From: Bdellovibrionota bacterium
GTDB lineage: Bacteria > Bdellovibrionota_C > UBA2361 > CALJRW01
Reading direction: 5' to 3'
NCBI GenBank assembly: GCA_041740355.1
Contig: JBGSMD010000046.1
Span: 102,546 to 166,545, forward strand
DNA: 64,000 nucleotides
How positions within the stretch are numbered: the first letter of the stretch is position 1; each line of letters starts with the position of its first letter. The notes under the pieces are model-generated. The model was not told where the DNA came from and ran no database searches. It saw nothing but the letters and a program-made list of their open reading frames with translations. The translations under genes and the position numbers were made by a program. Shown here piece after piece: positions 1,865-25,883 of the stretch.

Positions 1865-4351
1865 ATGAAGAAATATCTCTTATTTCTCCTCCTTATCCCC
1901 CAACTGCTTTTTGCAGCACCTAATGCTGATATAGTTTTTGTTACTCAAGTTCCTAACCCGGATGATTTTGTTACTGTGAATTCGACATTCGGAAATCACA
2001 TGGCGGGGATTGATCAGATCCGTCGTGGAGGGGATTTGTATATTAGGTATAAAGACGGAACATTAAAAAATCTGACTGCGGCTGCTGGGTTCGGAAATGT
2101 TGGTTTTCAAGGAGCGAACTCAATCGCGGTTCGAGATCCTGCCGTGCACTGGAATGGAGACAAAGTTATTTTTAGTATGGTAATTGGATCGGCTGCTAGC
2201 CAGTACCAAGTGAATAGTTACTATTGGCAGATTTATGAAATAACAGGACTTGGGAAAAACCAAACTCCAGTTGTTACTAAAGTTTCCAATCAGCCAAATG
2301 ATTTTAACAATGTAATGCCGATTTACGGCAGTGATGATCAGATAATTTTTGTTTCTGATCGACCAAGAAATGGAGAGCGACATCTTTATCCACAACGTGA
2401 TGAATACGAATCGGCTCCAACCAATACTGGGATTTGGAAGTTAAATCCAGCTACGGGCAGTTTATTTATAATGGATCATGCACCTTCCGGAGATTTTCAT
2501 CCGACCTTAGATAGTTTTGGAAGAATTCTTTTCACACGCTGGGATCACTTGCAAAGAGATCAGCAAGCAGGTGGCTTAACTGATTATGGCGCCTTTAATT
2601 ATTCTTCCGAGGCAAGTAATGCCACTAGGATTAATTCGCAGCATGAATTTTTCCCGGAAGCTAGAAATGAAGCGGAGCGAAATGCTGATGGAACTAGCAA
2701 TCTAAACCTACATCGATTTAATCATTTTTTCCCGTGGATGATCAATCAAGATGGATCGGAGATGGAAACAATTAATCATCTGGGGCGACATGAACTCCAT
2801 GATTATTTCCCCGAGTCCTTTAATGACGATCCGGAGTTAGAAGATTTTTCGGGACAGTCGGAAAGTAGATTTAATTTAAGTCCGATTGAAAACTTTTTTC
2901 AGATTAAAGAAGATCCAACTCAACCAGGAAGGTACTATGGAGTTGATTGTCCAGAGTTCAGTACCCATGCCAGTGGACAAATCGTTAGCTTTGAAGCACC
3001 TCCTAGTAAAAATCCAGATTTAATAAGTGTTAATTATGTTACGCATCGTAGCACGGCGAGTTATACGGATACTCCCTCTGTGGATCATTCTGGGTTATAT
3101 CGTGATCCTGCTAAACTAACTGACGGAAGTCTAGTTAGTGCACATACCTCCGAAACTAGAGAAGACGATAATATTGGTACAGGAAATGCACCAGCATCAC
3201 GCTATGATTATCGAATTAAATCTTTAGCACTTAGTGGGGGATATTTTAAGCCAGCAGAAGTTTTAACCGCAGGAATAGCAAAAAATATTTCTTGGTACAG
3301 TCCTGATGTGATGACAACTTTTAGCGGTAATCTTTGGGAATTACAGCCAGTAGAATTAGTTGCCAGAGCCAAGCCTCCAATGACGCAAACGATTTTGCCT
3401 GCTATTGAAGGGCAAGTTTTTGCAGATGAAAATGTTGCCCTAGAAGAATTTCGTAACTACCTAATTGATCAAGAGCTGGCATTAATTATTGTTCGTAATG
3501 TGACAACTAGAGATAAAGGAGATGAGCAACAGCCGTATAATTTAAAAGTTCCAAATGGTGTGCAGACAGTTGCTAATAGTGGTAAGTCCTATGAAGTTAG
3601 TGAGATGCAAATTTTTCAGGGTGACCAAATTAGAGGTTATGCCAATAATGACGAACCAACTGCAGGTCGACGGGTACTGGCACAACCAATGCGGGATTCA
3701 AATTTAGCTAATTTGATTGGGGAGCAAACTGGCAGTGTTAAAATTTCTGCTGATGGATCCGTCGCGGCAATAGTTCCAGCAAGTCGAGCACTCAGCTGGC
3801 ATTTAACAGATCAAGATAACAAATCAGTAATTAAAGAACGCTACTGGTTAACTTTTCGAGCCGGAGAAATTAGAGTTTGTGGTTCATGCCATGGGGTTAA
3901 TCAATTAGATCAGCAAGGTAATCCACCACCGGAGAATTCACCTGAGGCATTAAGGGAATTGTTAAGTCGTTGGAAGGGGATTCCTTATACCCCACTTGCA
4001 AGATATCAAGTATCAGCACACTCAAAAAGTAAAAAGAAAATTATTGGTAATAAGTTTCGTGCCGGCCACAGAGCTTTTTTAAATATTCTACCGTTAAACT
4101 CTAGTAGTCATAACACTGAGCTAAGTTATCGAGTTACGAGTGGAGAAAAACCTTGTGCTAAGACACGAAATATTAATGTTGCCGAAGAAGTAAAAAGTTT
4201 TGGTAAGTTGATACCAGAAATTACTGGACGATATCCAATAAAATATCAGTTCTTTCTAGGCGAGCGAAAAGTTGGGGAGATTGACCTTGTACTTAAAGGG
4301 CTACGCGGAGCAAAAGAATCTCATCGCCGGATTTGTAAAATCTTGCCTTAA
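1865..4351 (+). CDS. Secreted beta-propeller protein with HzsA (hydrazine synthase alpha)-like middle domain and one c-type heme motif
   Basis: Signal peptide; TolB-like segments (RDPAVHWNGDKVIFSM, IIFVSDRP, GRILFTRWD); DGSVAAIVPA...RAGEIRVCGSCHG containing CxxCH. Confidence 0.65.
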   Translation: MKKYLLFLLLIPQLLFAAPNADIVFVTQVPNPDDFVTVNSTFGNHMAGIDQIRRGGDLYIRYKDGTLKNLTAAAGFGNVGFQGANSIAVRDPAVHWNGDKVIFSMVIGSAASQYQVNSYYWQIYEITGLGKNQTPVVTKVSNQPNDFNNVMPIYGSDDQIIFVSDRPRNGERHLYPQRDEYESAPTNTGIWKLNPATGSLFIMDHAPSGDFHPTLDSFGRILFTRWDHLQRDQQAGGLTDYGAFNYSSEASNATRINSQHEFFPEARNEAERNADGTSNLNLHRFNHFFPWMINQDGSEMETINHLGRHELHDYFPESFNDDPELEDFSGQSESRFNLSPIENFFQIKEDPTQPGRYYGVDCPEFSTHASGQIVSFEAPPSKNPDLISVNYVTHRSTASYTDTPSVDHSGLYRDPAKLTDGSLVSAHTSETREDDNIGTGNAPASRYDYRIKSLALSGGYFKPAEVLTAGIAKNISWYSPDVMTTFSGNLWELQPVELVARAKPPMTQTILPAIEGQVFADENVALEEFRNYLIDQELALIIVRNVTTRDKGDEQQPYNLKVPNGVQTVANSGKSYEVSEMQIFQGDQIRGYANNDEPTAGRRVLAQPMRDSNLANLIGEQTGSVKISADGSVAAIVPASRALSWHLTDQDNKSVIKERYWLTFRAGEIRVCGSCHGVNQLDQQGNPPPENSPEALRELLSRWKGIPYTPLARYQVSAHSKSKKKIIGNKFRAGHRAFLNILPLNSSSHNTELSYRVTSGEKPCAKTRNINVAEEVKSFGKLIPEITGRYPIKYQFFLGERKVGEIDLVLKGLRGAKESHRRICKILP

Positions 4352-11706: not shown

Positions 11707-13242
11707 ATGCATTTCCCAAATTTGACCAAGTGTTGCTCACGCGACATGGTGAAAGATCTGAATTCAGGTTTTCTTGTATTTTTAATAACTCTACCATTAT
11801 GTATGGCCATTGCTGTGGCTAGTGGTTGCCCACCAATCTCTGGGATTATCACTTCGATTCTTGGAGGCTTGCTTACAGGCTTAATTGGCGGAGCAAAGTT
11901 ATCCATCAAAGGTGCTCCCGCTGGTTTAATTGTAATTGTTTTAGCAGCCGTTACTGAGCTAGGTGTTAATGGAGATCCACTATCTGGATATCGAGCGGCA
12001 TTAGCAGTGGGTGTAATTGCTGGATTCTTCCAGATTTTACTAGGATACTTTAAGCTTGGAAAGTTTATTGATTATATTCCAGCTGCAGTTGTCCATGGAA
12101 TGATTTCTGCTATTGGACTGATAGTGATGGCCAAACAGATTTATTTCTTGTTGGGGATGAAGGCTGTTGGTAAGTCACCAGTAGAGCTACTCAGTCATCT
12201 TTTTCAAAGTTTACATTTAGCAAATCCCTTGATTGCCATGATTGGACTCGTTAGTTTGGTAATCATGGTTTGTTCCCTACATCCAAAACTTAAAAGATAT
12301 TTCAAATTGCCTGGGGCATTAGTTGTCCTGTTATTTGCAATCGGAGTAAGTTTTGTTTTTCAACTCGGAACTAGTACCTCCTACCAATTCATGGGTACTA
12401 ATTACAAACTAGATGATTCATTTTTAATCCATCTTCCAAATTCACTAATTCAAGGATTAGTTATTCCTGATTGGAGCACTTTAGGAACTTTAACAGCTTG
12501 GAAGTTTATTTTTCTATTTGCTGTCATTGGTTGTATCGAGTCTTTGCTAACAGTTAAAGCTATTAATCAGACTCAAGGTCCAGACGAGCAAGCTAACTTA
12601 AATAAAGATTTGATCTCGATTGGAGTGGTAAATAGTCTCGCTGGAATGATTGGGGGAATTCCGATGATCTCGGAGATCGGTCGTAGTAAAGCAAATATTG
12701 ATTTTGGTGCCACTAGTGCACGGAGTAACCTAATACACGGAGCATTGTTAGTTGTAGCAGTTGTATTTTTTGCAAGCCTTTTAAATCATGTTCCGATCGC
12801 GGCACTAGCAGCAATTTTAATCTTTATTGGATACCGACTTTTCTCGATTACGGAATGGAAGCATTCTTGGCAACAAGGTAAGGCGATATTCGCGGTGTTC
12901 TTTGTAACATTTGCCGTGACAGTTGCTGTTGATTTATTGGCCGGTGTGCTTATAGGTTTTATACTTTATTTAATTTGTGAAAGTTTTAAATGTCATTCTT
13001 TAAAAAGAGTTTTTTCTCCCAAATTTATAATTGAAGTTGAATCTGAGCAGGCAAGGATATCATTTACAGAGGGTTTGATTTTCACCAACTTTCCAAAGGT
13101 AAAAAAAGTAACGGAAAATGCTCTTACTCTTCATCAAACAGTATTAATTGACTGCCAGCAATGTTCGTTTATTGACGACGAATTTATGCAGGAACTTAAT
13201 AATTATGTTGCCGCCACTACTAGAGTGCAAAAATTAAGTTAA
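11707..13242 (+). CDS. SulP/SLC26-family anion transporter, probably bicarbonate
   Basis: DLNSGFLVFLITLPLCMAIAVASG, SIKGAPAGL, IESLLT, GGIPMISEIGRSKANI; short STAS-like C-terminus; adjacent to dabAB. Confidence 0.9.
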   Translation: MHFPNLTKCCSRDMVKDLNSGFLVFLITLPLCMAIAVASGCPPISGIITSILGGLLTGLIGGAKLSIKGAPAGLIVIVLAAVTELGVNGDPLSGYRAALAVGVIAGFFQILLGYFKLGKFIDYIPAAVVHGMISAIGLIVMAKQIYFLLGMKAVGKSPVELLSHLFQSLHLANPLIAMIGLVSLVIMVCSLHPKLKRYFKLPGALVVLLFAIGVSFVFQLGTSTSYQFMGTNYKLDDSFLIHLPNSLIQGLVIPDWSTLGTLTAWKFIFLFAVIGCIESLLTVKAINQTQGPDEQANLNKDLISIGVVNSLAGMIGGIPMISEIGRSKANIDFGATSARSNLIHGALLVVAVVFFASLLNHVPIAALAAILIFIGYRLFSITEWKHSWQQGKAIFAVFFVTFAVTVAVDLLAGVLIGFILYLICESFKCHSLKRVFSPKFIIEVESEQARISFTEGLIFTNFPKVKKVTENALTLHQTVLIDCQQCSFIDDEFMQELNNYVAATTRVQKLS

Positions 13243-13249
13243 GGTTATA

Positions 13250-13299
13250 GCTGGCGATCGCGTTTAACAAAATTGCTAAGTTCAGGCGTGGTCGCTAGC
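13250..13299 (+). promoter_or_regulatory. Intercistronic RNA hairpin between sulP and dabA
   Basis: GCTGGCGATCGCGTTT (13250-13265) pairs with AGGCGTGGTCGCTAGC (13284-13299): 16 pairs, 5 of them G-U. Confidence 0.55.
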
Positions 13300-13324
13300 A
13301 GAGTGAATTGAAAGAGAGTATCTT

Positions 13325-16255
13325 ATGTTAATGCCAATTAACGACGAAATAAAAGTTATTGATTCTGATTCAATTCACTTGATTTTGGAAGAGTTAGCGG
13401 AATTACTTCCGAGTCAAGGACCGATTGATGTCTTTATTCATCATAATACTTTACATGGCCTAGAACATTTAAGTTTTTTTGAAGCAATAGAAACTGGCGC
13501 AAAGATTTTTGATGCTAGGTCGTATCTTGAGGAGAATCAATATCTCGAATTTTATCATGAAAATCGAATTCAATCAGTAGATTTAGATTACATTTTAGAG
13601 AAATTAGAGATTGACTCAAAAAAATTTCCAATCATAAAACGAATCTTACTTAATGTTCCTTTTGCTAAAACCTTTCAGCAAATTAAATGGTTATTAAGGG
13701 AAAGTTTTTTAGAATTACCAGAGGATTCAGAAACATTAGCGGCGGCAGTCAGCTGGATTCAATCTAGCAAGTTGCAGGAGGAAATAAAATTCTTAGAAAA
13801 GATTAATCGTCAATCTGCAACAGGTTTAAGGTCCTTGTTACAGGCTACGATTAGTGAAGGCCAGCGACATGAAATCATTAAAGAAGCGCTTTGGTCTCGA
13901 TGTTTACTTGCCGTTGTAGCTGAGAATATTCTTCCTGACCAAAATGTGGTTGAAAAAAATTCATTAATTATTGAAAAGGTTAATCCCTTTCTAATTAGAT
14001 TTTGTGAGGAGTACTTAGATCTGGGACAAGCAACAGTTGCTATGCCGAATAGAGCCACCGGACTGCTAAACTCTTTTTACAACTTAGTTAAGAGCTCTGA
14101 GATTTATTTACCTGATTGGCTTAGTAGCGTCAGCTGCAGTATTGAGAAATACCAATCACAAAAGCCTGAGGATATTTTATTAGAGATTATCACAAAAAAA
14201 GGTTTAAATTCAGTTGAAGCTAAAGAATTAATTTTCAGTGAAGTCTTAGCACTAAAAGGATGGGCTGGTTTTATTAGTTCAGCGGAACAGAATCCACATT
14301 ACTTGCACCACCTAGCAGGTGAAATAAAACCTAGCTTGATGGAGTTTGTTACACTAAGAATAATATTAGCAGATCTAGCGGAAGTGTTCTGTAGAAAAGA
14401 GTTATCCTTACAGCGCGAAATAGTGGATCGATCAACATTAAATAAATTCGATCACCTTTATCAGCTAGCATATCATTTATATTTAGTAGTGGTTGATGCC
14501 AGAGAAGTTAAAAAATCATTAACAGATTCTTTATATTTAGATCAGATTCTCGCCCAGCTTAATCTAGTTCCCCAATTAAAAAGGCAGAAAATTTGGCATT
14601 TGGCATACGAAGAAAATATTTACCGACGTGCTTTACAAGCGATTCAGTCTTGTGAGCCAGGTGATTCTTCTTCGCCTGAAATTATTGCTCAAATGGTTTT
14701 TTGTTTAGATGATCGGGAAGAGTCAATTAGAAGACATATTGAGAAGCAAAGCTCTAGTATTCAGACATTTGGAACGGCGGGTTTTTTTGGGGTTGATGCA
14801 ATTTATCAGTCAATTAGTGGTGAGCAAGCGCCTTTTTGTCCGATTGTTATTAAGCCAACTCACATAATTCGTCAGAAACCAAAAGAGAGCTCTAATCAGC
14901 GACTGGTTAATCTGCAAAAAAGACAACAAGTAAATCTCCATTTTAATAATTACTTAAGTCGTTTTTCGGGATCTATTTTTCATGGTTGGTTAATGACAAT
15001 CATTGGAATTTTCTCACTTTTCCCAATGCTCTTTAGTATTCTTTTTCCAAGACTGCGTAAGCCTTTTAGTAAGTTCTTTGATTTAGATGGAATGCTAACT
15101 ACTGAATTATCAGATTTGGAAATGGTAATTCCTGTTACTTCCGAGGATCCTTCCGAAATTGCAGGGTATACTGAATTAGAGATGGCTGATCGAGTAGCTA
15201 ATCTTTTGCAAACAATTGGCTTAACAAAAGAGTTTGGTAAATTAATCATTTTTTATGGACATGGTTCTTCTAGTCGTAATAATCCACTTAAGTCGGCATA
15301 TGACTGTGGAGCATGCGGCGGCCGGCCAGGGCGAATGAATGCACGGGCGATTGCCATGATGGTTAATCGGGTTGGCGTGCGAGAACTTTTAAAAAATTAT
15401 CATTCGATCGTGTTGCCGGAAGATACCTTTTGTATTGGTGCTTATCATAATACGTGTAACGATCAGGTACAGTATTACGATCTAGATTTATTGCCTGAGT
15501 CACACATAGTTTTTTTCGCTGGAATAAAAGAGTTAATGAATAAGGCCTGTAAAAGTAATTCTTTGGAGCGATGCCGTCGTTTTGGTCAAGTATCGGTGCA
15601 AACTCCGCTGGCAGCATATCGTGAAGTAAACTCAAGATCACAAACCTTAGCAGAACCTAGACCAGAATACGGGCATGCCGGGAATGCTCTATGTTTTGTT
15701 GGAAAAAGATCGGAGACTAAAAATCTATTTTTTGATCGACGAGCTTTTTTAGTTTCTTATGATTTTCAGGAAGATCCCAAGGCTCAGATATTAACAAACA
15801 TTTTAAAAGCGATTGTTCCTGTTTGTGGAGGAATAAATTTAGAATATTTTTTCTCAGCGCTAGATAATGAAGTTTATGGGGCAGGCTCTAAACTCCCTCA
15901 TAATATTGTTTCTATGTTGGGACTAATGAATGGAACTTGTAGTGATTTAAGAACTGGATTGCCACAGCAAATGATTGAAATCCACGAGCCAGTAAGATTA
16001 TTAATGGTTGTAAGTTGCGAACTTTCACAATTACAGGAGGCAATCCTACAAGATCCTACTGTTACTAGGATGATACATGGGCAATGGATAAGATTAATTT
16101 GCTGGGATCAATCACAGAAACTATTTTTTGATTATGATAGCGACGGGCTTTTTAAAGTAAAATCAGTCGAGCAGATAGCTCTGCCAGTAACAGAGAACTA
16201 TTTAACTAAGATTATTAAGCGCTCTGATAATTTAGACTTTCTTCGAATTAGATAA
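13325..16255 (+). CDS. dabA: DabA/MpsB (DUF2309), beta-carbonic-anhydrase-like subunit of an inorganic carbon pump
   Basis: FIHHNTLH; Zn-ligand motifs FCLDDREES, GHGSSS and DCGACGG; RPEYGHAGN, RRAFLVSYD, INLEYFFS, GSKLPHN, SDLRTGLP, HEPVRL. Confidence 0.93.
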   Translation: MLMPINDEIKVIDSDSIHLILEELAELLPSQGPIDVFIHHNTLHGLEHLSFFEAIETGAKIFDARSYLEENQYLEFYHENRIQSVDLDYILEKLEIDSKKFPIIKRILLNVPFAKTFQQIKWLLRESFLELPEDSETLAAAVSWIQSSKLQEEIKFLEKINRQSATGLRSLLQATISEGQRHEIIKEALWSRCLLAVVAENILPDQNVVEKNSLIIEKVNPFLIRFCEEYLDLGQATVAMPNRATGLLNSFYNLVKSSEIYLPDWLSSVSCSIEKYQSQKPEDILLEIITKKGLNSVEAKELIFSEVLALKGWAGFISSAEQNPHYLHHLAGEIKPSLMEFVTLRIILADLAEVFCRKELSLQREIVDRSTLNKFDHLYQLAYHLYLVVVDAREVKKSLTDSLYLDQILAQLNLVPQLKRQKIWHLAYEENIYRRALQAIQSCEPGDSSSPEIIAQMVFCLDDREESIRRHIEKQSSSIQTFGTAGFFGVDAIYQSISGEQAPFCPIVIKPTHIIRQKPKESSNQRLVNLQKRQQVNLHFNNYLSRFSGSIFHGWLMTIIGIFSLFPMLFSILFPRLRKPFSKFFDLDGMLTTELSDLEMVIPVTSEDPSEIAGYTELEMADRVANLLQTIGLTKEFGKLIIFYGHGSSSRNNPLKSAYDCGACGGRPGRMNARAIAMMVNRVGVRELLKNYHSIVLPEDTFCIGAYHNTCNDQVQYYDLDLLPESHIVFFAGIKELMNKACKSNSLERCRRFGQVSVQTPLAAYREVNSRSQTLAEPRPEYGHAGNALCFVGKRSETKNLFFDRRAFLVSYDFQEDPKAQILTNILKAIVPVCGGINLEYFFSALDNEVYGAGSKLPHNIVSMLGLMNGTCSDLRTGLPQQMIEIHEPVRLLMVVSCELSQLQEAILQDPTVTRMIHGQWIRLICWDQSQKLFFDYDSDGLFKVKSVEQIALPVTENYLTKIIKRSDNLDFLRIR

Positions 16256-20624: not shown

Positions 20625-21209
20625 CTAAGGTTGAAGACCAAGTAAACGATCTCGAATCATTTTAATTTGGCGTAAGTGAACTTGAAGGTGCATTACGGCA
20701 AAAGTATTCCAGTCTTTTTGATTTAGTTCGCCGACCCAGGGATGAAGATGCTTCTTAGCAACATTTTTTTTAAAATCATTCTGAGCTATTGTGGTTTGAT
20801 AGTTTTGAATATGATCGGTAAACATTTTCAGGGGATCCGCAATTTCGCCCTTAGGTTTAACTCGCGCCGGATCCGCTACAATCTCTGATTTACCATAATC
20901 ATTTAATTGTTTGATGATCGCTAGAAAGCCTTCACCCACAATTGCCAGATGTTCTAGGGTCATTCCCAGTGACCAATTAGTAGAGACTTCTTCTAGTCCA
21001 AAAATTCTTTTGATTTTAACTTTTTGGTTTATTTTATCGGCATCAACAGAATTTACCAAGCGAATAATTATCTTTGTAAGTTTATCGTAGTCATTTCTAG
21101 CAAAAACCAAATCATACTTACTTAAGTAATAAGGTGTAACCAAGTATCTTAGAATAAAATTTTCAGGAAAAGGTAATTGGGCAATCGAGGCAGTATTATT
21201 AATGTTCAT
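20625..21209 (-). CDS. DinB/YfiT-like protein
   Basis: WSLGMTLEHL, HPWVGEL, HLQVHLRQI. Confidence 0.8.
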   Translation of the reverse strand: MNINNTASIAQLPFPENFILRYLVTPYYLSKYDLVFARNDYDKLTKIIIRLVNSVDADKINQKVKIKRIFGLEEVSTNWSLGMTLEHLAIVGEGFLAIIKQLNDYGKSEIVADPARVKPKGEIADPLKMFTDHIQNYQTTIAQNDFKKNVAKKHLHPWVGELNQKDWNTFAVMHLQVHLRQIKMIRDRLLGLQP

Positions 21210-21319: not shown

Positions 21320-21808
21320 ATGCCATGTCCATTTGCCCCGCTATTATCTATTATTCCAGCACTGCCCTTTCTGCCCTGGATTATTGGGAAGTCAATGGAG
21401 CGGCTTGGGAAAAAAAATAAAATAAAGTTTTTGGTTGGTGAGTCAGCAAGTCAATCTAAAAATCTTGTACAGTTAGAGAATGATCAAGCTTTTTCCTTAG
21501 AGAATCCGCAATCCTGCATTAAGACCCTAGAGTTTTATCAGTCAGGTGCACCATATTTTCGCAAAACTAAAGCGCACCTAGTCCTTCTAGCTAGTGATTC
21601 TAGGAGTGAAACTTTATTGTTCACGAAATTAGAAGATTCTGAAATTGCTAAAAGTCTAACCGCTGTTTTTCTTAAACATCCACTTTCTCGGGTAGTGTTT
21701 AAGGATAACCGTATCATAGTAAAGTTGATTAATCCCGAATGTTACACTCCCGAGGCTCTTGATTTGCTGATTGGCAATCTGAGCTTAGATATTAAAGCTG
21801 TGCTTTGA
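21320..21808 (+). CDS. Hypothetical protein
   Basis: 162-aa ORF with ATG start and an N-terminal hydrophobic segment; overlaps the GMC gene 3' end by 17 bp. Confidence 0.5.
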   Translation: MPCPFAPLLSIIPALPFLPWIIGKSMERLGKKNKIKFLVGESASQSKNLVQLENDQAFSLENPQSCIKTLEFYQSGAPYFRKTKAHLVLLASDSRSETLLFTKLEDSEIAKSLTAVFLKHPLSRVVFKDNRIIVKLINPECYTPEALDLLIGNLSLDIKAVL

Positions 21809-23465
21809 TTTTATCAGCGACTCGAAAGGAATTGGCATAGATTGTCCAAGTATATGGAACGCTACCACCTGTTGGCATAAAGCTAGCATCGGACACGAAT
21901 AAATTACTGGCACTGTAGGCTCGACAATCGGGATCAAGAACATGTTGATCGGGATTATTTCCAAAGCGACATCCGCCAGCTACAAGATTCGGAGGTGGAG
22001 CACCACTAACACTGGAGGAAATATTTTTAAGTTTCATTTCTTCAAGTACCAGTTTTGCTTTGTCTCCCAGATATTTAGCAATTTTTAGATCATGTTGGTG
22101 ATACCCGAGCCGTACTTTTGCAACAGGCGTATTCCACTGATCCTTATTTTGAGTATCGAGGCTAACAAAACAATTATCTGTGGGTAACCAATCATTGAAA
22201 ACTTCAAAGTTTAGTTGTCTCTCGCTAGCAAAACCCTTTTTTAGTCTTTCCTGAAGTGACTGTCCCCAGATTAACTTTTCACCATCCCATTTTAAACTAT
22301 TTGCCCGACGAATTGGGTTGGCATGATCAAACAGAAAATCAATTAATCCACCTTTGACTCGCCCTCCTAATGATTGTTCATTAAAAATATACCAATCTTG
22401 TAGTGAGCGGTTAACAAATAGTCCCGGAGCTTTGAGACGATATGCAATTTCTTCTGGATAATCAGAGTAGTCTATCGTTCCATTGCCAGTTGCGCCGGCG
22501 GAGAAGATTAAGTTCTTACCAACTTGGCCATTATGATTAGCCAAACCATTTGGATGCTTGCTACCTGTCGACATTAATAATATGCGACTAGTTTCAATTG
22601 CTTGGCAAGCAACGACAAATATTTTGGCAGTTACTTCTTGGGATAAACCTTCGCGGTTGTAATATTTAACTTTAGTAACATTGCCTTGCGGGTTACTTTC
22701 TAAATGATAAACAAAAGAGTGGGGACGAATTTCACAGCTTCCAGTTTTGAGAGCTAAATCTAGCAGTGCGGCCCTAGCACTTCCTTTCGCTCCACTATTA
22801 CAACCATAGCTCCCACAAAAATTTGAGTAGTAACAACTGCTACGTTCGTTATGAGGAGTAGAGAGAATTGCCCGAGCCACTGGAATTGAATGGAAATTTA
22901 AATTTTTGCAGGCAGCATCAATTAATTCTACTACTTGATTTTCTTGTAGTGGTGGAAAAGGAAAATCTTTAGTTGATCTTGGTTCTTGAAAGGGATGATT
23001 AATAACTCGACCAGAAATGCCAACTATTTGTTCCACCTTAGTGTAATATGGTTCTAAGTCTTGATAAGTAATTGGCCAGTCTGAGATATTTGCGCCTTCG
23101 ATTGGTCCAAATTCAGAAAGCAAATGAAAATCTTCTGGCTTTAGCCGATGGAAGTACCCACTCATAAAATTAGATGATCCGCCAACACAGTTTCCATTCC
23201 AGAAATTTCGACCAGATTCTGTTGTACTTTCTGATTCCCAAGAATTAACTTTGCCAGTTTCAAGTACATGATACTCCTTCTTTAAACTTGGAGTGTAAAC
23301 ATCTCTACGAACAGCAACTAGTTCATCTTTAGAAAAATCTTTTTCTTTAAACCAAGGACCTTTTTCTAGAACTAGTACAGAATGTCCAGCGCTTGCTAGT
23401 TCTAAAGCAATGGGAGAGCCACCGGCACCAGAGCCGATGATACATACATCATAATCAGTAATCAT
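21792..23465 (-). CDS. GMC-family FAD oxidoreductase (gluconate-2-dehydrogenase flavoprotein-like)
   Basis: DVCIIGSGAGG, VLEKG, VGGSS, DWPITYQDLEPYY, CYYSNFCGSYGC Cys cluster, NLFVSDASFMPTGG. Confidence 0.9.
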   Translation of the reverse strand: MITDYDVCIIGSGAGGSPIALELASAGHSVLVLEKGPWFKEKDFSKDELVAVRRDVYTPSLKKEYHVLETGKVNSWESESTTESGRNFWNGNCVGGSSNFMSGYFHRLKPEDFHLLSEFGPIEGANISDWPITYQDLEPYYTKVEQIVGISGRVINHPFQEPRSTKDFPFPPLQENQVVELIDAACKNLNFHSIPVARAILSTPHNERSSCYYSNFCGSYGCNSGAKGSARAALLDLALKTGSCEIRPHSFVYHLESNPQGNVTKVKYYNREGLSQEVTAKIFVVACQAIETSRILLMSTGSKHPNGLANHNGQVGKNLIFSAGATGNGTIDYSDYPEEIAYRLKAPGLFVNRSLQDWYIFNEQSLGGRVKGGLIDFLFDHANPIRRANSLKWDGEKLIWGQSLQERLKKGFASERQLNFEVFNDWLPTDNCFVSLDTQNKDQWNTPVAKVRLGYHQHDLKIAKYLGDKAKLVLEEMKLKNISSSVSGAPPPNLVAGGCRFGNNPDQHVLDPDCRAYSASNLFVSDASFMPTGGSVPYTWTIYANSFRVADKIKAQL

Positions 23466-24112
23466 ACTTTCAAGATTTTAGGGTAGGCATTAAGCTCGTT
23501 GGGACGGGGATATCCTGGTTGGATTCCTAACCACTCCCAGCCAATTGAGTTGGGATTACCACCATAGAGGGGATCGCTAAGTAAGGCCTCAAAAATATAT
23601 TTTAACATTGCCGACAACCAATTTTCACCCCAGCTTTTTTGAGTAATAATTTGAAATATTTCTTCACGCTTTTCTTGATCTAGTTGATAGAAATTAAGCT
23701 GAAAATTTTCTTGACTTGTGTCGTTGATCCAATTAGCTCCTTTAATTAGGAATTCACGGTCATCCAAGTCAATTTGTTGATCATGTAAAACAAATTGTAA
23801 AAATTCCAAGGCATTAATTTGTTCAGCATCAAGATTATTTTTTGTCTCTGGAAAAAGGTGATTTTGCGTAGCACGAAGATTCCTAAGTTGTAGATCATTA
23901 ACGGGAGATGATAACCCCGTCTCTTGGTAGAAATATGTTAAACAGCCACTCAAACTGAGGCATCCGGTAGTCGCAAGTAAGCCTTTTAAAAAGGAGCGAC
24001 GATCGATTAGGCCTTCGGCAAAATTTACCAAGAGAGTCTTTTTATCTGTCACTTTCTTTGGAATTAAATTTTTTAAATATGAAATAATCGAGGCTAAATT
24101 TTCCTGGACCAC
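23462..24112 (-). CDS. Gluconate-2-dehydrogenase subunit 3-like Tat-exported partner
   Basis: Twin-arginine DRRSFLKG; C-terminal SDPLYGGN..GWEWLG..PG. True start is probably GTG 24052 or TTG 24031. Confidence 0.85.
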   Translation of the reverse strand: MVQENLASIISYLKNLIPKKVTDKKTLLVNFAEGLIDRRSFLKGLLATTGCLSLSGCLTYFYQETGLSSPVNDLQLRNLRATQNHLFPETKNNLDAEQINALEFLQFVLHDQQIDLDDREFLIKGANWINDTSQENFQLNFYQLDQEKREEIFQIITQKSWGENWLSAMLKYIFEALLSDPLYGGNPNSIGWEWLGIQPGYPRPNELNAYPKILKV

Positions 24113-24482
24113 TAATTATTAAGCTAACTAGCATGATTATATAATATAAGGGGATTTCGAAGCCATTTTTGCCCGCTTCGAATCCATGCTCTAAGTGTAC
24201 TGTAAAAATGGCGACTAGCATTACAAAAATTAATGGAAATGAGATTAGGCGTGTTGCTAAGCCTAAAGTTAAAAGGATTACACCAGTTATTTCAGTAATC
24301 GTTGCTAAGTAGGCATTCAGTAGTGGCAAGGGAATATTCATACTACTAAACCATTCAGCAATCGCGGAAATGTTTTTTACTTTAGCTAGTGCTGGGGAAA
24401 AAAATCCATAAGCTAGAATTAATCGAAAGAATAGCGGTGGTAGATCTTTTAATTTTGTTAGAAGGTTTAAGATCAAAGACAT
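24042..24482 (-). CDS. DoxX-family membrane protein (HvfX-like)
   Basis: KDLPPLFFRLILAYGF, LGLATR, VHLEHGF, NGFEIPLYY, GPGKFSLD. Start placed at ATG 24482 because the upstream ATG 24518 lies inside a hairpin. Confidence 0.88.
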   Translation of the reverse strand: MSLILNLLTKLKDLPPLFFRLILAYGFFSPALAKVKNISAIAEWFSSMNIPLPLLNAYLATITEITGVILLTLGLATRLISFPLIFVMLVAIFTVHLEHGFEAGKNGFEIPLYYIIMLVSLIISGPGKFSLDYFIFKKFNSKESDR

Positions 24483-24499
24483 AGATTGTTTATTGGTAA

Positions 24500-24556
24500 G
24501 TATAAAGAAAGACGACATTCATTCGTTCTTTTAATCGAAGCATTCTGAATGTCGTC
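24500..24556 (-). terminator. Hairpin plus U-rich tract downstream of the peptide gene (partial terminator or mRNA stabiliser)
   Basis: Perfect 11-bp inverted repeat GACGACATTCA (24511-24521) / TGAATGTCGTC (24546-24556), followed on the minus strand by TTTCTTTATA. The loop is long (24 nt). Confidence 0.55.
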
Positions 24557-24587
24557 GGGTGTTGAATTAAAAAATTAACTCAATCTT

Positions 24588-24830
24588 TTATCCACATTTG
24601 CCAGTACCACATTTAGCTTCTTTATCTTTTCCATCATCACATTTTTTTGTTTCTTCTTCTTTACCACCATCGCATTTTCCAGTTTCTTCTTCTTTCCCAC
24701 CATCGCATTTCGTTGTGTCATCAGCTTGAGTAGTTTGAAGATCGTTTGATGGTGTTAATGGAGCAGCACTTAATGAGCTGATACTTATAAATGTTGCGAT
24801 CAAAGCAAGTAATAGTGTTTTCTTAATCAT
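24588..24830 (-). CDS. Secreted Cys-repeat peptide, HvfA/oxazolin (EGKCG-type) RiPP-precursor-like
   Basis: Sec signal peptide, then KCDGGKEEETG-KCDGGKEEETK-KCDDGKDKEA-KCGTG-KCG (5 Cys); 33-bp tandem DNA repeat; next to DoxX. Confidence 0.75.
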   Translation of the reverse strand: MIKKTLLLALIATFISISSLSAAPLTPSNDLQTTQADDTTKCDGGKEEETGKCDGGKEEETKKCDDGKDKEAKCGTGKCG

Positions 24831-24915
24831 TATATTTCTCCGAGAATATTATATATATAGTTGTTAAAGTTTTAAGGAGTTAGAATGAAAATGCCATTCA
24901 ATAATCCTTAGTGCA

Positions 24916-24953
24916 TAAGTTAGTGATAGCATATTACAATTTATTACAGATTT
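24916..24953 (-). promoter_or_regulatory. Putative ECF-sigma promoter of the peptide/DoxX/GMC operon
   Basis: AAATCTGTAA-N17-TCACTAACTTA on the minus strand; both boxes and the spacing recur exactly at 25544-25581. Confidence 0.7.
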
Positions 24954-24999
24954 TTTTAATAATTTAGATTGATTCTCGCATCTTGCCCTAAAGCTATAG

Positions 25000-25015
25000 A
25001 GTAACTATAGTTACT
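25000..25015. promoter_or_regulatory. Perfect 16-bp palindrome in the divergent promoter region (candidate operator)
   Basis: AGTAACTATAGTTACT is its own reverse complement. Confidence 0.35.
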
Positions 25016-25056
25016 TTTGTTAACTCATTGTTTTTAATCAATATTAATATTCTGCT

Positions 25057-25647
25057 GTGAGCAAAAAATTAAATCAGATACCTCTAAATTCTTTATCAGA
25101 GGCGATAGCTAATAAAGAAACAGAGGTAATCGAACTGCTAGTACAAGAGTACACGCTTTGCCTGATGAAAGCTGGATTGGGGTTAGGCTTTTCAGTGGAT
25201 CAGGCGGAAGACTTAGTGCAAAGTGTTTGGATAGTTTTCTTTGGGCAGCCTGAGAAATTCGAACAAAGATCGCAGCTTAAGACTTATCTCTTTGGTATTT
25301 TATATAATAAAGCTCGAGAGTTACGCCGGGCTAATCAAAAAAATATTCCCGAAGATCGGATTGAAGACTTGCTAAATGAATGTTTTAATTCCAAAGGGCA
25401 TTGGTCTACTCATTTAGTCAGTCCTGATAAGATGCTCGAGTCTGTCGAGACTATTAGTTTCATAGAAAAGTGCCTTAGTAATTTACCAACATCGCAGCGC
25501 TTGGCATTTTATCTTCGTGAAATCGAAGAATATTCAAGTCAAGAAATCTGTAAGATTTTAGACGTTTCAATCACTAACTTAGGTGTGCTTTTATTTAGGG
25601 CAAAAGCAGGACTACGATACTGCTTGGAATTTAAAATTAAGACATAG
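25057..25647 (+). CDS. ECF RNA polymerase sigma-70 factor
   Basis: Region 2 AEDLVQ..FEQRSQLKTYLFGILYNK; region 4 LPTSQRLAFYLREIEEYSSQEICKILDVSITNLGVLLFRAK. Confidence 0.93.
   Translation: MSKKLNQIPLNSLSEAIANKETEVIELLVQEYTLCLMKAGLGLGFSVDQAEDLVQSVWIVFFGQPEKFEQRSQLKTYLFGILYNKARELRRANQKNIPEDRIEDLLNECFNSKGHWSTHLVSPDKMLESVETISFIEKCLSNLPTSQRLAFYLREIEEYSSQEICKILDVSITNLGVLLFRAKAGLRYCLEFKIKT
25544..25581 (+). promoter_or_regulatory. Putative intragenic ECF promoter upstream of the anti-sigma gene
   Basis: AAATCTGTAA-N17-TCACTAACTTA inside the sigma region-4 coding sequence, ending about 70 bp before the anti-sigma ATG. Confidence 0.6.
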
Positions 25648-25652
25648 TCACG

Positions 25653-25883
25653 ATGCGTTCTTGTAGAGAAATTATTAGAATAGTTGATCAGCAGACAGAG
25701 CTAAGTTTTCTTCAAAGGTTAGAGGTGCGCTTTCATCTGATAATTTGTCGCCGCTGTCTACTCTTTGCTAAGCATCTTAGGATTATCAAGAAAAGCTATC
25801 GTCGGCTTCTTAATAGTCGGATTGTTAAGATTGAGCAGCTAAAAGATTTAGAGCAGAGGATTATTAAAGATTTGAAGAGCTAA
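25653..25883 (+). CDS. Zinc-finger (ZAS/zf-HC2) anti-sigma factor, cytoplasmic
   Basis: MRSCRE...HLIICRRC (HxxxCxxC), directly after the sigma gene; no TM segment. Confidence 0.88.
   Translation: MRSCREIIRIVDQQTELSFLQRLEVRFHLIICRRCLLFAKHLRIIKKSYRRLLNSRIVKIEQLKDLEQRIIKDLKS

Follow-up and report, generated by a model that had tools for sequence, protein, structure and literature searches.

A GMC-family dehydrogenase in place of the MNIO maturase in an operon with a Lys-Cys repeat peptide and DoxX: a candidate variant of the oxazolin/bufferin envelope stress system in a Bdellovibrionota bacterium

A 64,000-nucleotide stretch of a Bdellovibrionota bacterium genome (GenBank assembly GCA_041740355.1, contig JBGSMD010000046.1, positions 102,546–166,545 of the forward strand; hereafter the window) was analyzed around an operon that encodes a small exported peptide with Lys-Cys repeats together with a flavoprotein of the GMC family. 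Oxazolin- and bufferin-type peptides are currently understood as copper binders made by MNIO enzymes. The genome behind the window comprises 74 contigs and is 97.27% complete. Four consecutive genes on the minus strand, recognized from the open reading frame (ORF) list and from Pfam and NCBIfam matches, encode the peptide, a DoxX membrane protein, a gamma subunit and the GMC flavoprotein (alpha), which ends the operon; genes for an extracytoplasmic function (ECF) sigma factor and an anti-sigma factor lie on the opposite strand (Table 1). This is the layout given in a preliminary description of the locus, and the overlapping stop and start codons that it reported for the last three genes are present as well: alpha and gamma overlap by 4 nucleotides (ATGA), and gamma runs into doxX by 11 nucleotides from GTG 24052, which is probably its start, or by 71 nucleotides if the longest ORF is taken. 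The doxX gene probably starts at the ATG at 24482. In the anti-sigma factor, encoded beside the ECF sigma factor, HLIICRRC matches the H-x3-C-x2-C signature of ZAS anti-sigma factors, and zinc binding is predicted.

A second genome of the same genus shows complete synteny, from the sigma factor through anti-sigma factor, peptide, DoxX and gamma to alpha. Between the two species, nonsynonymous divergence (dN) was 0.13–0.24 and synonymous divergence (dS) was saturated or near 2, with dN/dS = 0.05–0.17 in the four genes where the ratio was computable; the operon genes are under purifying selection.

Table 1. Features of the operon and its surroundings (window coordinates)
Feature	Position	Strand	Remarks
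GMC-family FAD flavoprotein (alpha), 557 aa	21792-23465	-	Pfam GMC_oxred_N/C; without signal peptide
Gamma ("hitchhiker") subunit	23462-24112	-	PF13618 Gluconate_2-dh3, 52.9 bits; TAT_signal match; DRRSFLK
HvfX-type DoxX, membrane protein	24042-24518	-	longest ORF 158 aa; Pfam DoxX 66.2 bits; NF050144 127.7 bits
Two hairpins in the spacer between the peptide gene and doxX	24505-24583	-	second hairpin 24511-24556, then UUUCUU
Cys-repeat exported peptide, 80 aa	24588-24830	-	ORF; signal peptide of the SPase-I type; GGAG precedes ATG
Sigma-70-like match TTAAAA-16-TATAAT, 10/12	24848-24875	-	consensus only; site count of the region not above shuffles
Candidate ECF-type promoter TGTAATAA-N15-CACTAA	24920-24948	-	about 90 nt upstream of the peptide ATG
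ECF sigma factor, 196 aa	25057-25647	+	Sigma70_r2, r4_2; TIGR02943 104 bits, under cut-off
Small soluble ZAS-type anti-sigma factor, 76 aa	25653-25883	+	HLIICRRC; NF052368 39 bits, cut-off 50
DinB_2/DUF1569 protein	20625-21209	-	two genes downstream of the operon
Flanking protein, 162 aa	21320-21808	+	no Pfam/NCBIfam match
Multi-pass membrane protein, 640 aa	25886-27808	-	no Pfam/NCBIfam match

The peptide core, TKCDGGKEEETGKCDGGKEEETKKCDDGKDKEAKCGTGKCG, carries five cysteines as KCDGG (twice), KCDDG, KCGTG and KCG, giving five Lys-Cys sites (three KCD and two KCG) after a hydrophobic N-terminus that ends SLSA/AP. It thus has the repeated Lys-Cys-small-residue sites behind a Sec signal by which HvfA-type peptides are recognized. 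The HvfA models NF050137 and NF050188 gave no match at E values up to 10, nor did any other Pfam or NCBIfam family; the HvfA domain model looks for KCGExKCG twice, with a cut-off of 19.5 bits, and likeness to this motif is confined in the window peptide to the C-terminal KCGTGKCG. The KCD repeat, already singled out in the preliminary description, is therefore unusual, and KCG and KCE variants fill the equivalent position elsewhere. Peptides at that position in other phyla passed the HvfA domain model with 27.5–43 bits, and 9 of the 11 enzyme-linked peptides scanned (from 10 loci) were above its cut-off. Among the 19,077 ORFs of the genome (at least 30 aa), the window peptide alone contains at least three KC[GDE] motifs; the peptide of the same-genus species also has five core cysteines, with a spacing of 10, 10, 8 and 4 against 10, 10, 9 and 4 in the window; and dN between the two was 0.19 at saturated dS. 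For these reasons the peptide gene is real and maintained, and more than a chance ORF.

N-termini were also read by eye. By this count, a lipobox-like motif precedes a cysteine in about 14 of 24 enzyme-adjacent peptides versus 0 of 11 MNIO-type peptides; the window peptide has none. Two Bacteroidota loci (L094 4969-5340 and L105 4952-5338) encode lipoprotein peptides with 8–11 EGKCE repeats directly upstream of gamma and alpha, a variant that lies outside the HvfA domain model (no match in L094; 19.3 bits to the full-length HvfA model, cut-off 95, in L105). The window genome itself encodes a second secreted Cys-rich peptide, of 85 aa with 10 cysteines of the CNCGEKC and ECECKKC type and without a Pfam match, on another contig (C63 123685-123942, minus strand; L118 5686-5943), next to peptidase and ABC-transporter-like genes.

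Profile searches of the whole 97.27%-complete window genome returned no MNIO (DUF692, PF05114) and no DUF2063 (PF09836), the second search being one for PF09836 and not for the divergent "PME-type 2" partners (PMC12452194), and tblastn with the MNIO and DUF2063 proteins of a relative found nothing. The preliminary description had allowed that a DUF692 protein encoded elsewhere in the genome might modify the peptide; none was found by either approach. One candidate for a hidden maturase came from the same-genus genome, where an ORF of at least 239 aa (L106 1-717, minus strand) runs off the end of contig C30 with MNIO as its sole Pfam match, scoring 24 bits where the cut-off is 25. Possibly a divergent MNIO-fold protein of the sister species, it was set aside because the window genome has no homolog.

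The distribution of the alpha subunit was compared with that of MNIO at three levels. Within the order of the window genome, an alpha ortholog was found in 6 of 91 genomes and MNIO above cut-off in 37 of 91; MNIO occurred in 0 of the 6 genomes with an alpha ortholog versus 37 of the 85 without. In a sister genus, gamma and alpha come after a gene for a KCG lipoprotein peptide, and no DoxX was found in that genome, so the link between peptide and enzyme is independent of DoxX. Another family of the order carries a canonical operon (EGKCG peptide, MNIO, DUF2063, DoxX). That operon, the MNIO genes in more than a third of the order and the patchy occurrence of alpha would all be expected if the lineage had lost hvfB and hvfC and the peptide were a non-functional leftover beside an acquired dehydrogenase operon. 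Decay of this kind is very improbable, since the signal peptide, the number of cysteines and their spacing are kept between species whose synonymous sites are saturated, the sister genus retains its peptide beside gamma and alpha, and the arrangement recurs in two other phyla.

In Bacteroidota, 400 genomes and a centre genome (a Lutibacter) were searched with NF050137, and five were positive. The four new ones all have MNIO 100–400 bp from the peptide gene and lack an alpha ortholog, holding only GMC paralogs of 28–33% identity; the Lutibacter has an alpha ortholog about 2 kb from the peptide gene and no MNIO. The same search of 301 Campylobacterota genomes gave 15 positives. In seven of these MNIO directly adjoins the peptide, and an alpha ortholog is present in one of the seven; MNIO is missing from the other eight, each of which has an alpha ortholog, at most 1.6 kb from the peptide gene in five (the alpha scan described below had led to one of these genomes, G047, beforehand). 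The base rate of the alpha ortholog was 38/301. Fisher's exact test on 8/0 versus 1/6 gave p = 0.0014, or 1.2e-4 with the four Bacteroidota added; both values ignore kinship and hence overstate the case. Across the 16 genomes with peptide- or DoxX-linked alpha loci, for which completeness figures were not reported, PF05114 was above cut-off in none. The presence of alpha and gamma is thus nearly exclusive with MNIO, and the substitution of a GMC dehydrogenase for the MNIO enzyme is borne out as a recurrent architecture, both by linkage in several phyla and by this distribution. That the dehydrogenase tends to be absent where MNIO is present points to a second route for making Cys peptides functional or keeping them so.

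In the available part of a survey of EGKCG peptides (PMC12452194), the 67 of 2583 genomes without MNIO are treated as rare, unexplained exceptions for which no partner is offered, and the terms "dehydrogenase" and "GMC" do not occur in that part. The present results suggest that such exceptions are not random: in three lineages they accompany one conserved periplasmic flavin/iron-sulfur dehydrogenase. Our literature search, which covered few subscription journals, found nothing linking enzymes of the GMC/gluconate-2-dehydrogenase type to EGKCG, bufferin or DoxX systems.

Genomic neighborhoods were collected by a scan with the alpha protein (one genome per species), which gave 353 relatives, of which the best 80 loci were kept; neighbors were assigned by ORF calling, clustering and annotation of cluster representatives, and several of the 80 loci are short contigs. 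Peptides were detected by rules of our own (at least three [KRGEDAS]C[GD] or at least two KC[GDE]) and with a 29-position hidden Markov model. Identity of alpha outside the genus was 53–64%, the loci came from Gammaproteobacteria, Bacteroidota, Campylobacterota and a few other groups, and gamma precedes alpha in nearly all of them. Signal-peptide or lipoprotein peptides with KCG, KCD or KCE repeats adjoin the pair in 16 of these best 80 loci, from Bacteroidota, Campylobacterota and the window lineage (L026, 040, 042, 043, 045, 047, 048, 049, 054, 061, 067, 073, 083, 087, 094 and 105); the co-occurrence that the preliminary description proposed to look for in other genomes is therefore real and extends to other phyla. 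Periplasmic WCxWC thioredoxins were found beside the pair in 20 loci (top NCBIfam matches: DsbD C-terminal domain, TsoB and DsbH), ScsC/DsbA-like proteins in 6, ResA/TlpA-like proteins in 4, proteins of the bufferin-1 precursor family DUF2282 in 4, DoxX in 13, and ECF sigma genes, all falling in one cluster of neighbors, in 9 (6 by BLAST with the window sigma factor). In the gammaproteobacterial loci, ScsC-like proteins and DoxX lie downstream and the upstream slot holds other periplasmic Cys proteins. No MNIO gene was found within 6 kb in the best 80 loci, save for the apparent remnant in L082 described below. A large and uncharacterized GMC subfamily thereby gains candidate partners, namely repeat peptides, WCxWC thioredoxins and TlpA-like proteins.

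On a FastTree phylogeny of 76 alpha sequences, peptide-linked forms fall in Campylobacterota, Bacteroidota and the window lineage, and forms linked to thioredoxin, TlpA or DUF2282 proteins fall in Gammaproteobacteria. Judged by record titles, the thioredoxin and TlpA-like forms have carriers in culture (Thalassotalea, Aliikangiella and Thiomicrorhabdus), and the peptide-form loci of the alpha scan come from metagenome-assembled genomes. One campylobacterotal locus (L122) has the order peptide-DoxX-gamma-alpha, identical to that of the window. Loci of the MNIO type have the order peptide-MNIO-DUF2063, with DoxX in 5 of 7 from Campylobacterota and 3 of 3 from Bacteroidota, and the repeat KCGAGKCG is common to peptides from MNIO-type and dehydrogenase-type loci.

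Two campylobacterotal loci (L119 and L120) form a larger conserved island around the dehydrogenase. In both, the peptide gene directly follows a gene for a P-type ATPase with heavy-metal-binding domains (HMBD), and the row runs from the ATPase through a KCG lipoprotein with a conserved central Cys-containing domain and a beta-CASP metallo-beta-lactamase to alpha, gamma and a GltS-like FMN protein; the last is placed between gamma and DoxX in one locus and follows gamma in the second. Further genes in L119 encode DoxX, an HD-domain protein, a Lactamase_B protein and a second KCG peptide. In a third genome, the peptide follows a fragment of an AcrB-like pump and precedes a thioredoxin-7 protein.

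The closest solved relatives of alpha are the alpha subunit of the Burkholderia cepacia glucose dehydrogenase (BcGDH, 6a2u; E 1.8e-42) and the Gluconobacter fructose dehydrogenase 7w2j. According to the available part of the BcGDH paper (PMC6719666), Cys212, Cys218 and Cys222 ligate a 3Fe-4S cluster at the surface, through which electrons pass from flavin adenine dinucleotide (FAD) to a cytochrome c subunit; catalysis is ascribed to His476 and Asn519 as the likely pair, FAD is attached covalently at His105, and Cys213 bonds to gamma. In the HMMER alignment, alpha Cys211, Cys217 and Cys222 pair with the three cluster cysteines of 6a2u, forming a predicted 3Fe-4S triad; conservation was read from 69–76 orthologs, and the three are invariant in 69. 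The counterpart of His476 is Leu494, conserved in at least 97%, and Asn519, His105 and Cys213 correspond to Pro537 (variable), Phe100 and Tyr212; the invariant His456 might substitute for the lost catalytic His. Alpha begins directly at a GxGxxG-type FAD-binding motif, with no signal peptide. Gamma has the Tat motif DRRSFLK followed by a lipobox, LSGC (69 orthologs aligned), and is a predicted lipoprotein. No ORF with CxxCH, as expected of a cytochrome c beta subunit, was found between window positions 4351 and 55680 (within 17 kb of the operon). Judged from these alignments, alpha is an electron-transferring dehydrogenase of the direct electron transfer (DET) FAD architecture, in a subfamily that appears to lack the canonical catalytic base. 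It resembles the gamma-alpha-beta enzyme of B. cepacia and the Gluconobacter enzyme in the alpha fold, in the cluster cysteines and in a Tat-targeted gamma that carries a signal-less alpha; it differs in having no cytochrome c beta subunit and, on alignment, no counterparts of His476, Asn519, His105 and Cys213, in a gamma that is a predicted lipoprotein, and in neighbors that are Cys proteins and not sugar-metabolism genes.

The replacement of the catalytic His of sugar-oxidizing relatives by an invariant Leu suggests a substrate other than an alcohol, and bears on the idea that the periplasmic dehydrogenase itself modifies the cysteines of the exported peptide, as an analogue of the cytoplasmic, O2-dependent MNIO/DUF2063 system. 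Such new peptide chemistry might be an O2-independent two-step dehydrogenation, giving for example a thiooxazole-like or thioaldehyde-derived group, with electrons leaving via the 3Fe-4S cluster and DoxX. It would account for the sharing of peptide and DoxX families by two architectures in which only the enzyme pair is exchanged, and for the near-exclusive distribution relative to MNIO; many carriers come from sulfidic or low-oxygen settings, judged by record titles, and one locus, L082, has an apparent frameshifted MNIO remnant between its DUF2282 gene and the TlpA-gamma-alpha genes. We nevertheless consider it improbable. In the linked peptides Cys may be followed by G, D or E, a recognition (RRE-like) partner is absent, the gammaproteobacterial orthologs adjoin thioredoxin-fold and TlpA-like proteins, which a general role in thiol redox fits better, and we know of no GMC enzyme that modifies a peptide cysteine.

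Two loci bear on the DUF2282 family. In L082 (3572-7704; an uncultured gammaproteobacterium), a DUF2282 gene, an MNIO-like stretch, a TlpA-like gene, gamma and alpha follow one another without DUF2063; tblastn similarity covers MNIO residues ~6–210 only and is split over two frames, so that the stretch may be a truncated, frameshifted remnant, either a fossil of maturase loss or an assembly error. In L069 (1-7680; an uncultured member of the Thiotrichaceae) there are two gamma/alpha pairs, one after a WCxWC thioredoxin and the other after a DUF2282 gene, which in turn comes after a divergent ECF sigma/DUF3379 pair.

The window DoxX passes the HvfX model NF050144 (cut-off 80 bits), matches Pfam DoxD with 31 bits, and shares 57% identity with the DoxX encoded by a canonical hvfA-MNIO-DUF2063-doxX operon from another family of the same order. 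On a DoxX tree, proteins of MNIO-type loci are mixed with those of dehydrogenase-type loci inside each phylum, with weak branch support, and the context label changes five times, which is not fewer than for shuffled labels. Of three other DoxX proteins scanned, two (L061 and L067) pass the HvfX cut-off and that of Sedimenticola (L074) fails it at 54.5 bits. In the available parts of the papers on bufferins and HvfA (PMC11626156, PMC11252979), bufferins are modified and function without DoxX, whose role is unexplained. For this protein (HvfX/BufD) the window operon suggests a possible role, that of membrane partner to a dehydrogenase without a cytochrome.

The candidate ECF-type promoter of the operon, in the form TGTAATAA-N15-CACTWA, is also found upstream of the same-genus peptide gene and, at a distance of 29 nt, before a paralogous doxX on contig C64 of the window genome. 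Strict matches to this form number 3 across the genome, compared with 0.4 expected from shuffles. The third, also on C64 (L021 ~13396-13424, minus strand), lies about 36 nt before a DUF3047 gene (12639-13388); this gene is followed by genes for a DedA/VTT protein, a pyridine nucleotide-disulfide oxidoreductase, a glycosyltransferase and a phosphorylase-family protein, and the row possibly represents further members of the same ECF regulon. C64 also encodes a second ECF/ZAS pair (L021 5064-8857), whose sigma and anti-sigma factors are 60% and 49% identical to those of the window. This pair is divergent from a DoxX (70–75% identical) and a secreted AhpC/TSA-family (TlpA-like) protein, beside which lie a periplasmic thioredoxin, a DsbD_2/CcdA-like membrane protein and a DUF2784 gene; the paralogous stress module contains neither peptide nor dehydrogenase. 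Because of the shared promoter motif and the paralogous ECF/ZAS-DoxX-thioredoxin locus, the window operon can be assigned to a thiol and envelope stress regulon. Within the operon, the spacer between the peptide gene and doxX has a predicted RNA fold of -24.8 kcal/mol (z -5.1; z -4.0 for the equivalent same-genus spacer). A simple terminator scan did not flag its hairpin, which is a probable partial terminator or attenuator after the peptide gene and would fit a higher transcript level of the peptide than of the enzymes.

Taken with the distribution data, these features are consistent with an MNIO-independent variant of the HvfA/oxazolin-bufferin envelope stress system, in which the dehydrogenase, together with DoxX, is the redox partner of an unmodified Cys peptide. 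This is the reading we favor, with confidence evenly balanced for and against. Under it, the ECF sigma/ZAS anti-sigma switch would drive a single operon whose first gene yields, in excess, a Sec-exported peptide with five Lys-Cys sites, and read-through past the hairpin would yield DoxX and a Tat-exported, lipid-anchored flavin/3Fe-4S dehydrogenase, the gamma subunit carrying the signal-less alpha out. The plain cysteine thiols or thiolates of the peptide would then serve as a periplasmic copper/thiol buffer. The dehydrogenase would be its dedicated redox partner, with the surface Fe-S cluster trading electrons with Cys pairs or bound copper, and DoxX, standing in for the absent cytochrome c subunit, would connect the enzyme to the quinone pool. 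Metal context is provided by the position of the peptide gene after a heavy-metal P-type ATPase in the two campylobacterotal loci described above, which we count in support.

The properties of a peptide made without its maturase can be judged from HvfA. As reported in the available part of PMC11252979, HvfA made without the maturase has all eight cysteines in disulfides, and the unmodified form binds 2–3 Cu(I) too weakly to compete with bicinchoninic acid, the high-affinity sites being those of the modified form. A maturase-less peptide would therefore need redox support. We prefer the direction in which the enzyme keeps or restores the reduced, metal-binding peptide, because the partners in Gammaproteobacteria come from families of the reductive branch and because a peptide without modification would, left alone, become oxidized; an MNIO-modified peptide would not need such an enzyme. 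The preliminary description had left side by side an MNIO-independent system, in which the dehydrogenase and DoxX pass electrons to or from the peptide thiols, and new peptide chemistry. The MNIO-independent architecture with a GMC enzyme proved recurrent; of the two, electron exchange with the thiols is the role that we favor.

Several observations weigh against redox partnership with the peptide. Some concern the enzyme: on alignment, an invariant Leu stands in place of the canonical catalytic His, and we know of no precedent for a 3Fe-4S flavoenzyme that reduces disulfides. Others concern linkage. In 3 of the 8 MNIO-less Campylobacterota the peptide is far from the enzyme (about 750–800 kb in two, another contig in one), and one genome of this phylum combines MNIO with an alpha ortholog located on a different contig. 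Among the 38 alpha-positive Campylobacterota, 29 gave no NF050137 match, a search that misses true cases (the G044 peptide scores 31.9 bits when scanned alone, yet was not found). As many as 39 of the best 80 alpha loci are without any Cys-protein partner, including about a dozen from Chromatiales in which the pair sits between sugar-nucleotide genes and ParA/CHAD genes. Related genomes are not independent, the peptide label follows phylogeny with only about 2 changes on the alpha tree, and outside the window's own order the sampled genomes are partial and of unstated completeness. Because pairs also adjoin thioredoxin-like proteins, and because so many loci have no Cys partner, the enzyme is not dedicated to KCG peptides.

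The loci without a Cys partner and the alpha-positive Campylobacterota without a peptide match are also what a serious rival would predict, namely that the genes are co-regulated neighbors only: peptide and DoxX would be self-sufficient, and alpha and gamma would form a separate periplasmic dehydrogenase of the same stress regulon or island, acting on some sugar, alcohol, aldehyde or sulfur compound. The position and orientation of the peptide gene relative to the enzyme genes vary, and the promoter motif of the genome also precedes other redox genes, both of which agree with mere co-regulation. We think it unlikely all the same. It does not predict an alpha ortholog in 1 of 7 peptide-bearing Campylobacterota with MNIO, which is near the base rate, against 8 of 8 without; doxX, gamma and alpha are translationally coupled downstream of the peptide gene in the window and again in another phylum; and the partner slot is filled by periplasmic Cys proteins only. 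An enzyme that services periplasmic cysteines would in our view best explain the linkage to peptides, the absence of MNIO and the thioredoxin-type proteins that take the place of the peptide elsewhere.

Taken more widely, gamma and alpha, wired through DoxX, might constitute an unrecognized periplasmic enzyme acting on protein or peptide cysteines, either as an O2-independent maturase that acts after export or as a DsbD-independent source or sink of electrons, whose clients would be repeat peptides, cDsbD-like thioredoxins, TlpA-like proteins and ScsC. This we put forward tentatively, as possible but doubtful. If such a thiol-acting enzyme exists, it would give the DoxX of copper-peptide clusters its first function. 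Families fed by DsbD, ScsB or CcdA (cDsbD, TlpA/ResA and ScsC) serve cysteines at copper or haem sites, and members of them fill the peptide slot in the gammaproteobacterial loci; the difference is that these loci have no DsbD-type membrane reductase and the flavoenzyme stands in the expected place, where it may supply the electrons instead.

The window operon can be set beside three better-known systems. With the hvfX-hvfA-hvfB-hvfC oxazolin operon of nontypeable Haemophilus influenzae it shares a Sec-exported Lys-Cys repeat peptide, an HvfX-type DoxX and a stress sigma/anti-sigma pair nearby; it differs in the absence of MNIO and DUF2063 from the genome, in the gamma and alpha genes that follow doxX, and in mostly KCD repeats that escape the HvfA models. 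The bufferin operon bufABCD of Caulobacter vibrioides, as described in the available part of PMC11626156, likewise has an exported Cys peptide for copper stress, a dispensable DoxX as its fourth gene and control by an ECF sigma factor, and DUF2282 precursors adjoin alpha/gamma orthologs in the four loci counted above; BufB (MNIO) and BufC are needed there, whereas the window genome has neither. Finally, the DoxX-SseA-SodA complex of Mycobacterium tuberculosis and the DoxDA thiosulfate:quinone oxidoreductase (available part of PMC11252979) pair DoxX/DoxD-fold proteins with enzymes of thiol or sulfur redox. Their partner enzymes are different, and a quinone or thiol activity of HvfX-type DoxX would be by analogy.

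The genes that flank the operon (last three rows of Table 1) hold the same positions in the same-genus genome. Among them, the DinB_2/DUF1569 protein belongs to a superfamily that includes thiol S-transferases.

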